From a virus (Duplodnaviria > Heunggongvirae > Uroviricota > Caudoviricetes): 4,002 nucleotides of DNA. Of the stretch, positions 1-3,000 are shown piece by piece; position 1 is the stretch's first letter; each line of letters starts with the position of its first letter. The position numbers are program-made. The stretch lies in IMG/VR virus record IMGVR_UViG_2651869748_000010, positions 1 through 4,002 of that record. One strand, given 5' to 3'.

Positions 1-3000
1 ATGCCAGTCTTGCGCCCCCCCCCCCCAGAGGAGCAGGTGAATCGGAATGATTATCCCCTCCGGCATGAATCATGATCGCCCGTTCTTTTATCTGGCTTAT
101 TTTTTTTATTTTTGGACTCAGAACCGGGTTTTCTGCATTTCCTTCTGAGTTGACATAGAGTGCTGGTAGATCACCCAGATGGCCCTCCGGATTGTACGGC
201 CCAAGATGTTTATTTGTTTGTTCAGGATCATAATGCCCACCGGCAGCAAGAGCTGGCACTTTTTTTCCATTAATCAGACCGGGATCACAACTGGCATTTT
301 CATGGATATGAAAGCCATGTAACCCTGGTGGCAGTTCTTTCAGATGAGGAGTGAACAGCAATCCGTAGCTGGTTTCTGAAATAGTTATTTCCCCTATATT
401 TTTCCCTACTCCTTCTGAGGAAACGAGATTTACAGGGATCGTCATTGTATCAGCCATTACGGCTCCACTAAGTAGCGCAGTTACAGCAAGTATTTTTTTA
501 TCATAAATACCCCGTCATTTCGTGTTGTTAATCAAGGTGATTTAAGTTTTAACAAATGAAATACAACAGATGCATTTTTGTTGCAAGCGGTCGTTATATG
601 GTTCGCATAAAATTGATTACTGTTTCGGGAATTATCTATGGGTAAAGGTGGCAGTAAGGGGCATACCCCGCGCGAAGTGAAGGACAACCTGAAATCATCC
701 CAGCTGCTGAGCGTGATAGACGCCATCAGTGAAGGACCGATTGAAGGTCCGGTGGATGGATTAAAAAGTGTGCTGCTGAACAGTACGCCAGTGCTGGACA
801 GTGAGGGGAATACCAATATCTCCGGTGTCACGGTGGTGTTCCGGGCAGGTGAGCAGGAGCAGACACCGCCGGAGGGATTTGAATCCTCCGGCTCCGAGAC
901 GGTGCTGGGTACGGAAGTGAAATATGACACGCCGATCACCCGCACCATTACGTCTGCAAACATCGACCGTCTGCGCTTTACCTTCGGTGTGCAGGCACTG
1001 GTGGAAACCACTTCAAAGGGGGACCGGAATCCGTCGGAAGTCCGCCTGCTGGTTCAGATACAACGTAACGGTGGCTGGGTGACGGAAAAAGACATCACCA
1101 TTAAGGGCAAAACCACCTCGCAGTATCTGGCCTCGGTGGTGGTGGGTAACCTGCCGCCGCGCCCGTTTAATATCCGGATGCGCAGGATGACGCCGGACAG
1201 CACCACAGACCAGCTGCAGAACAAAACGCTCTGGTCGTCATACACCGAAATCATCGATGTGAAACAGTGCTACCCGAACACGGCACTGGTCGGCGTGCAG
1301 GTGGACTCGGAACAGTTCGGCAGCCAGCAGGTGAGCCGTAATTATCATCTTCGCGGGCGCATTCTGCAGGTGCCGTCGAACTATAACCCACAGACGCGGC
1401 AATACAGCGGTATCTGGGACGGAACGTTTAAGCCAGCATACAGCAACAACATGGCCTGGTGTCTGTGGGATATGCTGACCCATCCGCGCTACGGCATGGG
1501 GAAACGTCTTGGTGCGGCGGATGTGGACAAATGGGCGCTGTATGTCATCGGCCAGCATTGCGATCAGTCGGTGCCGGACGGTTTTGGCGGCACGGAGCCG
1601 CGCATCACCTGTAATGCGTACCTGACCACACAGCGCAAGGCGTGGGATGTGCTCAGTGATTTCTGCTCGGCGATGCGCTGTATGCCGGTATGGAACGGGC
1701 AGACGCTGACGTTCGTGCAGGACCGACCGTCGGATAAGGTGTGGACCTATAACCGCAGTAATGTGGTGATGCCGGATGATGGTGCGCCGTTCCGCTACAG
1801 CTTCAGCGCCCTGAAGGACCGCCATAATGCCGTTGAGGTGAACTGGATTGACCCGAATAACGGCTGGGAGACGGCGACAGAGCTTGTGGAGGACACGCAG
1901 GCCATTCTCCGTTACGGTCGTAACGTCACGAAGATGGATGCTTTTGGCTGTACCAGCCGGGGGCAGGCACACCGCGCCGGGCTGTGGCTGATTAAAACAG
2001 AACTGCTGGAAACGCAGACCGTGGACTTCAGCGTGGGTGCCGAAGGGCTTCGCCATGTACCGGGCGATGTCATTGAAATCTGCGATGATGACTATGCCGG
2101 TATCCGCACCGGCGGGCGCGTGCTGGCGGTAAACAGCCAGACGCGGACGCTGACGCTCGACCGTGAAATCACGCTGCCATCTTCCGGCACCACGCTGATA
2201 AGCCTGGTTGACGGGCAGGGGAGTCCGGTCAGCGTGGAGGTTCAGTCCGTCACCGACGGCGTGAAGGTGAAAGTGAGCCGTGTTCCTGACGGCGTTGCTG
2301 AATACAGCGTATGGGGGCTGAAGTTGCCGACGTTGCGCCAGCGCCTGTTCCGCTGCGTGAGTATCCGTGAGAACGACGACGGCACGTATGCCATCACCGC
2401 CGTGCAGCATGTACCCGAAAAAGAAGCCATCGTGGATAACGGGGCGCACTTTGACGGCGACCTGAGCAGCACGGTGAATGGCGTCACGCCGCCCGCGGTG
2501 CAGCACCTGACTGCCGAAGTTACCGCAGACAGCGGGGAATATCAGGTGCTGGCGCGCTGGGACACGCCGAAGGTGGTGAAGGGGGTGAGCTTCCTGCTTC
2601 GCCTGACCGTGGCAGCGGACGATGGCTGTGAGCGGCTGGTCAGTACGGCCAGGACGACGGAAACCACATACCGCTTCACGCAACTGGCGCTGGGGAACTA
2701 CAGGCTGACTGTCCGGGCGGTAAATGCGTGGGGACAGCAGGGCGATCCGGAATCGGTATCGTTCCGGATTGCCGCACCGGCAGCGCCGTCTCGGATTGAG
2801 CTGACACCGGGCTATTTTCAGATAACCGCCACGCCGCATCTTGCGGTTTATGATCCGACGGTACAGTTTGAGTTCTGGTTCTCGGAAAAGCGGATTACCG
2901 ATATCAGGCAGGTTGAAACCACAGCCCGCTATCTTGGTACGGCGCTGTACTGGATAGCCGCCAGTATCAATATCAAACCGGGCCATGATTATTATTTTTA

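Follow-up and report, generated by a model that had tools for sequence, protein, structure and literature searches.

In Salmonella and enterohemorrhagic Escherichia coli, superoxide dismutase genes of the sodC type carried by prophages are regarded as cargo that contributes to virulence or fitness. Simple-sequence contingency loci, in which homopolymers bring about phase variation by slipped-strand mispairing, are known from Neisseria, Haemophilus, and Campylobacter, and pseudogenes created by homopolymer frameshifts are a general feature of decaying prophages and host-adapted enterobacteria. The described prophage SodC proteins (Fels-1 SodCIII and Gifsy-2 SodCI of Salmonella, SodC-F1/F2 of E. 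coli O157:H7, and the Stx2a-phage SodC) belong to one family, PF00080, and their genes are lysogenic-conversion cargo tied to oxidative-stress resistance (PMC2569942). Here we describe a further member of this family, encoded at the start of a 4,002-nt stretch of a Caudoviricetes genome (positions 1 to 4,002 of IMG/VR record IMGVR_UViG_2651869748_000010; hereafter, the window), in which the conserved glycine motif is specified by 12 uninterrupted Gs (G12; other runs are written in the same way). The length of this run differs among nearly identical prophages, and we interpret it as probably, though far from certainly, a hypermutable homopolymer that arose by accident, in a prophage-borne cargo gene that is undergoing mostly neutral loss.

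The window SodC shares 66% protein identity with Fels-1 SodCIII, 62% with Gifsy-2 SodCI, and 57% with the Stx2a-phage SodC, and its gene occupies the same slot as Fels-1 sodCIII and Stx2a-phage sodC, namely, between genes I and J and on the strand opposite to them. At the DNA level it constitutes a distinct lineage, with sources that are mostly Escherichia albertii and only 64 to 70% identity to the Fels-1, Gifsy-2, and Stx2a-phage genes; the phage-collection relatives of positions 1 to 640 are no closer than this range and are informative for codon usage, not for tract length. The two sets differ in their homopolymers: the Fels-1, Gifsy-2, and Stx2a-phage genes have no run of 7 nt or more, whereas members of the window lineage have either two G runs separated by a T (G6TG5) or an uninterrupted G10 to G15, in addition to A7/A8 runs. 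As in contingency loci, a long G/C run lies within an open reading frame (ORF), its length differs among close strains, and a second run directly follows the start codon. Unlike in such loci, the tract is interrupted in most alleles, lies 8 codons from the stop, is stable within lineages, and is found in a host genus that is generally mismatch-repair proficient. The locus also resembles the pseudogenes of decaying prophages in that −1/+1 indels occur at A and G runs of an accessory gene and the prophages bear other lesions (a TAG in J of the window; an IS21-family element and a deletion in L at locus L003; a deletion in K at L009). It differs from these in that the sodC hot spot was created by a synonymous substitution and displays many lengths (G10 to G15) rather than one fixed lesion.

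The sequence-only reading of the window had placed a 12-nt homopolymer over the GGGG-Arg motif of SodC, and this is borne out: positions 15 to 26 are C12 on the plus strand and hence G12 on the coding minus strand, where CTG GGG GGG GGG GGC GCA AGA CTG GCA reads LGGGGARLA. The tract and the frame that contains it are as follows.

Positions 15 to 26, minus strand: G12 homopolymer, consisting of the last base of Leu CTG, Gly codons GGG GGG GGG, and the first 2 bases of Gly GGC, in the LGGGGAR motif of SodC.
Positions 1 to 457, minus strand: SodC reading frame, from an internal ATG at 457 to 455 (MADTM...) to the window edge, with the PF00080 match.

This frame matches the Pfam Sod_Cu model with an E value of 6.1e-29 (101.6 bits against a cut-off of 28.9), and among solved structures it comes closest to Salmonella SodCI (1EQW and 6D52; E = 7e-68). 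The Arg codon AGA is at positions 10 to 8, and the Cys codon begins at base 1 and then leaves the window. Thus, the window encodes the C-terminal motif of Cu,Zn-SODs up to its edge. Full-length relatives end in RLACGIIK (C-terminal motif LGGGGARLACGIIK), and in an alignment of 15 diverse SodC proteins the LGGGGxRxxCG motif is invariant, including R166 and C169. In Cu,Zn-SODs, the conserved Arg is an active-site residue and the Cys is one half of the intrasubunit disulfide.

The C12 run is the sole 12-mer homopolymer of the window, and none of 200 dinucleotide-preserving shuffles produced one. All four runs of at least 7 nt in the 4-kb window fall inside the 504 nt of sodC; besides C12 they are T8 at 100 to 107, T7 at 260 to 266, and T7 at 493 to 499 on the plus strand, which agrees with the earlier statement that A7 and A8 runs lie in the same gene. 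The J gene (3.4 kb, 56% GC) has no homopolymer longer than 6 nt. At the level of the codons, G12 is less exceptional. Shuffling the synonymous codons of the window sodC, whose Gly codons are rich in GGG (9 of 21), gave a G run of at least 12 nt in about 4% of 20,000 trials, in a test that is partly circular in that the GGG codons of the tract itself are in the pool. Because such shuffles yield a comparable run at this rate and a single T-to-G change suffices to create it, the arrival of G12 is best read as an unremarkable one-step accident. Despite the shuffle probability of about 4%, we rejected pure codon chance without consequence, since the tract does have consequences, as is evident from the length polymorphism described below. 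A G-quadruplex or regulatory role was also set aside: a single G12 has no loops, and no data call for such a role. As in contingency loci, homopolymers of about 8 nt or more lie within the ORF, namely, G12 at 15 to 26 and A7/A8 at codons 2 to 5.

A protein search recovered a cluster of 60 sequences at 90% identity, with source names of E. albertii (mostly) and E. coli. The cluster proteins vary at the N terminus, starting either with MIKKILAV... (173 aa) or at an internal Met (157 aa), and their C termini PLGGGGARLACGIIK, PLGGGAQDWHAE, PLGGGGAQDWHAE, and PLGGGGRKTGMRNN are the products expected from G12, G11, G14, and G13, respectively. Using the cluster proteins, predicted variant proteins, and the conserved 33-mer GGGGATAATCATTCCGATTCACCTGCTCCTCTG, we fetched the DNA of 72 sodC copies, including the window; most came from exact protein look-up, and the counts below are therefore not population frequencies. 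The alleles at the Gly motif are as follows.

G6TG5 (CTG GGG GGT GGG GGC): 32 loci; 12 nt, in frame.
G6TG2TG2: 7 loci; 12 nt, in frame.
G9AG2 (GGG GGG GGA GGC): 3 loci; 12 nt, in frame.
G9TG2: 1 locus; 12 nt, in frame.
Uninterrupted G11: 13 loci; frameshifted.
Uninterrupted G12 (the window, L006, L020, and L138): 4 loci; in frame.
Uninterrupted G13: 10 loci; frameshifted.
Uninterrupted G14 (RN587/1): 1 locus; frameshifted.
Uninterrupted G15 (L045): 1 locus; in frame, with one additional Gly.

Every one of the 43 interrupted alleles is 12 nt long and in frame, and the protein collection also contains proteins consistent with G10 and with a further G14. The tract was uninterrupted in 24 of 24 loci found via frameshift proteins, against 3 of 40 found via in-frame proteins (Fisher P = 1.2e-14). 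This contrast has a built-in control, since interrupted alleles that gained or lost a G would encode identical frameshift proteins. It therefore indicates that the interrupting T stabilizes the run and that its removal destabilizes it. DNA pattern scans blind to the tract state found six of seven loci interrupted, although these scans (5 loci from IMG/VR and 2 from JGI metagenomes) are too small for an unbiased frequency. By a rough extrapolation from contig counts, about half of the uninterrupted copies are out of frame, a share close to the two-thirds that an absence of constraint would give.

The claim that a change in length disrupts the C terminus was likewise sustained for any change that is not a multiple of three. 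The G11 and G14 products end in ...AQDWHAE and the G10 and G13 products in ...RKTGMRNN, each directly followed by a stop, so that QDWHAE or RKTGMRNN stands in place of the last eight residues, RLACGIIK, and the invariant Arg and Cys are removed. Given the roles of these residues, the C-terminal frameshift forms have likely lost SOD activity. Downstream of the tract, just past the window start, all three frames reach a stop within 15 nt (GGAATAATTAAATAA, in loci L001 to L154); each frameshift product therefore adds only 6 to 8 new residues. An inverted repeat, AATCACCG...CGGTGATT, comes next, between the convergent sodC and I genes.

The sequence-only reading had also asked whether homologous genes use mixed Gly codons at this motif, and they do. 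In 79 sodC genes of other species the longest G run at the motif is 2 to 6 nt, with GGG accounting for only 27 of 316 Gly codons, and the Gly codons of the Fels-1, Gifsy-2, and Stx2a-phage genes are mixed as well. Hence, as judged from these comparisons, the uninterrupted tract is a derived and not an ancestral state. In a phylogeny of roughly 3 kb taken from J plus sodC, from which the tracts were masked out, uninterrupted tracts appear at several places, with a Fitch minimum of 4 changes between interrupted and uninterrupted states. Loci L020 (G12) and L019 (G6TG5) are 3 nt apart in 4,077, and one of the three differences is the T-to-G change. The GGT-to-GGG fusion thus appears to have arisen in at least three or four backgrounds. 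The Gly motif also has the intermediates G9AG2 and G9TG2 (L001, L136, L141, and L144), and it follows from these that the second-Gly GGT-to-GGG change happened on several third-codon backgrounds. Either a substitution hot spot next to the run or short gene conversion among prophage copies might account for its repetition.

Instability is indicated by the closest relatives of the window, which are at least 99.6% identical to it over 3.4 kb and carry G11, G12, G13, and G15 together with a mixture of A7 and A8; G14 was found outside this clade. Locus L024 and the window are set apart by 2 mismatches plus one G, and L006 (G12) has the same single-nucleotide polymorphism pattern in the 3.4-kb region as L021 and L022 (G11). 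These lengths, along with the G14 allele and the G10-consistent protein, agree with the earlier description of the tract as slippage-prone, and an invariant length across isolates, which would have spoken for a stable tract, is not what the strain comparison gave (G11 to G15). As in contingency loci, length differs between close isolates and gives both on and off frames, although some of these differences may be sequencing errors. Among the 13 uninterrupted tips, the Fitch minimum is 5 length changes against a tip-shuffled mean of 5.5, i.e., there is no phylogenetic signal at such resolution. At a finer scale, an identical G13 contig was present in 13 samples and another in 5; L149, L153, and L154 are identical over their shared 1.5 to 1.8 kb; and L150 and L152 differ by 1 nt. 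Tract states are stably inherited within lineages, which argues against very fast switching. In our reading, the tract would mutate far faster than ordinary sites, yet not so fast that every isolate differs, a pace in keeping with a long run in a host that is proficient in mismatch repair.

A second variable tract lies at the 5′ end of the gene. Intact alleles start with ATG ATA AAA AAA ATA CTT, encoding MIKKILAVTALLSGAVMA, a leader missing from the solved mature chains; the chains of 1EQW and 6D52 align from residue 19/20, and residues 1 to 18 are therefore the leader. The remaining features of the gene are as follows.

Positions 493 to 499, minus strand: 5′ A tract at codons 2 to 5, A7 in the window and A8 in intact alleles.
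Positions 502 to 504, minus strand: ATG of intact alleles (MIKKILAV...), which in the window opens only a 7-codon ORF, MIKKYLL followed by a stop (504 to 481).
Positions 463 to 466, minus strand: GGAG, Shine-Dalgarno-like, 5 nt upstream of the internal ATG (457 to 455).
Positions 260 to 266, minus strand: A7 run in sodC (GGA AAA AAA GTG, G-K-K-V), invariant in all loci read, with sampling biased by protein look-up.
Positions 100 to 107, minus strand: A8 run in sodC (codons K-I-K-K-I), of the same length in 72 of 72 loci, with the same sampling bias.

The short ORF results from the window A run being one base short. Between the start of the SOD frame in the window and the internal Met at 457 to 455 there is no ATG, GTG, or TTG, and neither the start codon nor the signal peptide shares the frame of the SOD domain. 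The earlier statement that the gene is in frame therefore stands if applied to the G tract and the SOD domain and fails for the gene ATG (504 to 502), which is out of frame because the tract is A7, not A8. Gene callers annotate 157-aa leaderless products at such loci because GGAG precedes the internal ATG. They often pick this ATG even at A8 loci, where the upstream ATG is in frame, and a 157-aa annotation therefore does not show the tract state. Across the 72 loci the 5′ tract is A8 in 57, A7 in 14, and A6 in 1. The Fitch minimum for this tract is 7 changes among 44 tips (shuffled mean, 7.6), and one pair, L145 (A8) and L148 (A7), differs by 1 mismatch plus the A-tract gap in 6,465 nt. The window allele itself combines A7 with G12; in L138 (CP126912.1), G12 occurs with A8. 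As A7 unlinks the start and signal peptide from the SOD domain and J bears a private TAG (see below), the window copy is probably a decaying prophage gene; with sodC already disabled at A7, the in-frame G12 does not make the copy "on."

Taken together, these observations suggest a simple series of events. The common G6TG5 arrangement (CTG GGG GGT GGG GGC) at the invariant Gly4 motif would be the starting state, and a single synonymous GGT-to-GGG change would fuse the two runs into G12. The uninterrupted run would then gain or lose Gs by slipped-strand mispairing in replication, a step suggested by the allele pattern. Lengths other than 12 or 15 would swap the C-terminal RLACGIIK and should inactivate or destabilize the enzyme, and A8 at codons 2 to 5 would act as a second hot spot that repeatedly loses a base. 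The tract is thus mechanically like a simple-sequence switch, and loss and drift, neutral or under weak selection, account for the data better than maintained phase variation does. Several points weigh against our interpretation. Slippage is inferred from the pattern of alleles; inactivity of the frameshifted SodC forms, though likely, is a deduction from SOD biochemistry; and internal A-run frameshifts could not be sampled through protein look-up. The independent origins of the uninterrupted tract are taken from a tree that is mainly J, and mosaicism or gene conversion between sodC prophages of the same genome could give the appearance of recurrence. Selection for switchability would, in addition, yield just such repeated creation of the tract together with a second 5′ tract. 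Finally, homopolymer miscalls may lie behind some of the length differences: several A7/A6 and G11 copies are from closed genomes presumed to be long-read (CP117556, CP117678, CP117590, CP0432xx, and CP0341xx), and L003, from one of these presumed long-read closed genomes, has another homopolymer deletion nearby, in gene L. Taken to its limit, this last point would mean that there is one fixed real length and that G10 to G15 and A6/A7 are miscalls or collapsed sodC copies in draft assemblies. Every sequencing platform is prone to error in long G/C runs, some genomes contain at least two sodC prophages, and short contigs are numerous; individual calls, including the exact 12 of the window, could be off by one. 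We nonetheless consider a wholesale artifact decidedly improbable, given that the same lengths recur in independent assemblies and pipelines (G13 in NCBI drafts and in Logan; G11 in at least 10 assemblies), that variant lengths track lineages such as L149/L153/L154 and L150/L152, that a difference of A7 versus A8 lies in the range that short reads resolve accurately and is seen in presumed short-read draft and Logan assemblies, and that interrupted alleles never vary in length. A check of the I-K-L-M region for homopolymer indels found one event only, that of L003, which neither convicts nor clears the closed genomes.

The alternative closest in mechanism is a true phase-variation (contingency) locus, in which the 3′ G and 5′ A tracts are selected reversible switches that mix lysogens with and without periplasmic Cu,Zn-SOD, for example, balancing resistance to the oxidative burst against cost or antigenicity. 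The coexistence of in-frame and out-of-frame lengths among near-identical prophages with essentially no phylogenetic signal, the origin of the uninterrupted tract in several backgrounds, and the concentration of all long homopolymers of the window in sodC are in its favor, as is the occurrence within a single 522-nt gene of two hypermutable runs, of which one occupies codons 2 to 5, the classic position of an on/off tract. The in-frame G15 allele, if derived from G12, may have been reached by way of out-of-frame lengths or, just as well, in one +3 step. However, most copies (43 of 72, all 12 nt) have an interrupted, stable allele, so that mutability is not conserved, and the tract is not kept as a tract across alleles and lineages, as it would be at a contingency locus (six of seven loci interrupted in the blind scan as well). 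Moreover, switches of this kind do not typically have their tract where this G tract lies, 8 codons ahead of the stop; the identical G13 contig in 13 samples and the identity of L149, L153, and L154 over shared sequence point to stability within lineages; and in the window clade A7 occurs with G12, G13, and G15, a pattern that resembles drift in a gene already dead. Mismatch repair is generally proficient in Escherichia, and literature searches on sodC phase variation in this genus, and on prophage sodC of E. albertii, brought up no relevant paper and thus no precedent. We therefore regard selected phase variation as unlikely, and the proposal of the sequence-only reading that sodC is a candidate reversible on/off switch finds weak support at most, as most alleles carry a stabilizing T, the tract is not conserved, and its states are stable in lineages. 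A more elaborate, and rather unlikely, version would be a two-tract phase-variable sodC, with the 5′ A8 gating translation start and export, A7 being leaky via a −1 slip, and the 3′ G12 gating the catalytic C terminus, together providing reversible hedging of lysogen populations. The slip invoked here could also by itself keep the window A7 allele expressed, through recoding on A_AAA_AAA or through addition of an A by RNA polymerase, in which case the lesion would lower, not abolish, expression. In the ATG frame A7 is indeed a perfect X_XXY_YYZ heptamer from which a −1 shift gives the exact A8 product MIKKILAV, and A7 recurs in several backgrounds. A fold analysis for stimulatory structure 3′ of the heptamer found none (RNA fold z = −0.51), on which ground the idea of a programmed −1 frameshift was downgraded; the site is merely 2 codons past initiation; the shifted arrangement is not conserved, with A8, which needs no shift, in 57 of 72 loci; and a deletion hot spot is the simpler account of the recurrence of A7. 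Hence, we consider recoding very improbable. Neutral or weakly selected loss at an accidental homopolymer is the interpretation that we retain.

For the E. albertii/E. coli lineage, the alleles show that a sodC gene can be present without its enzyme. In 15 of 72 copies the gene is frameshifted at codons 2 to 5, a lesion that gene callers mask through the internal ATG (157 aa), and virulence-gene typing and annotation should accordingly score the sodC tract state. The locus also offers a clean natural case in which one synonymous substitution turns a stable G6TG5 into an unstable G12. Were switching found to be fast and reversible, a phage-borne antioxidant enzyme would join the short list of slipped-strand phase-variable genes of Enterobacteriaceae. 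If the two-tract version were true, it would be the first slipped-strand phase-variable sodC of which we are aware, and an uncommon instance from an enterobacterium that is proficient in mismatch repair.

Related contigs place sodC between tail genes I and J, on the strand opposite to them, in lambdoid Escherichia (E. albertii/E. coli) prophages, and positions 638 to 4002 of the window, on the plus strand, are a lambda J-like tip attachment gene. With its location between morphogenesis genes, its own orientation, and a deviant GC content (45% against 56% for J), sodC has the marks of moron or lysogenic-conversion cargo. A promoter and terminator scan of positions 1 to 700 gave no promoter-like site and one terminator-like match, inside the gene and at chance level, and a megablast search of positions 1 to 640 against 5,426 complete E. 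coli genomes gave no match. The J of the window has an in-frame TAG at 3131 to 3133, where all close relatives (at least 99.6% identical) have TGG. The J ORF from 638 to 3133 encodes 831 aa, and the frame then runs on to 4002 with Phage_Tail_Tip and Ig_GpJ_C domains; in the close relatives J is intact, at 1,137 to 1,165 aa. The TAG would therefore be either a private nonsense mutation, implying a defective tail, or a base-call error. Relatives of this prophage carry lesions of their own, namely, the homopolymer deletion in L of L003 and an 8-bp deletion in K of L009. In L003, an IS21-family element replaces most of J. This locus and L035 are two sodC prophage copies with different tract states in one E. 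albertii genome (CP117556.1). At L137 (CP117580.1), close to gyrA, a prophage remnant contains the same sodC next to an nleG-like effector gene.

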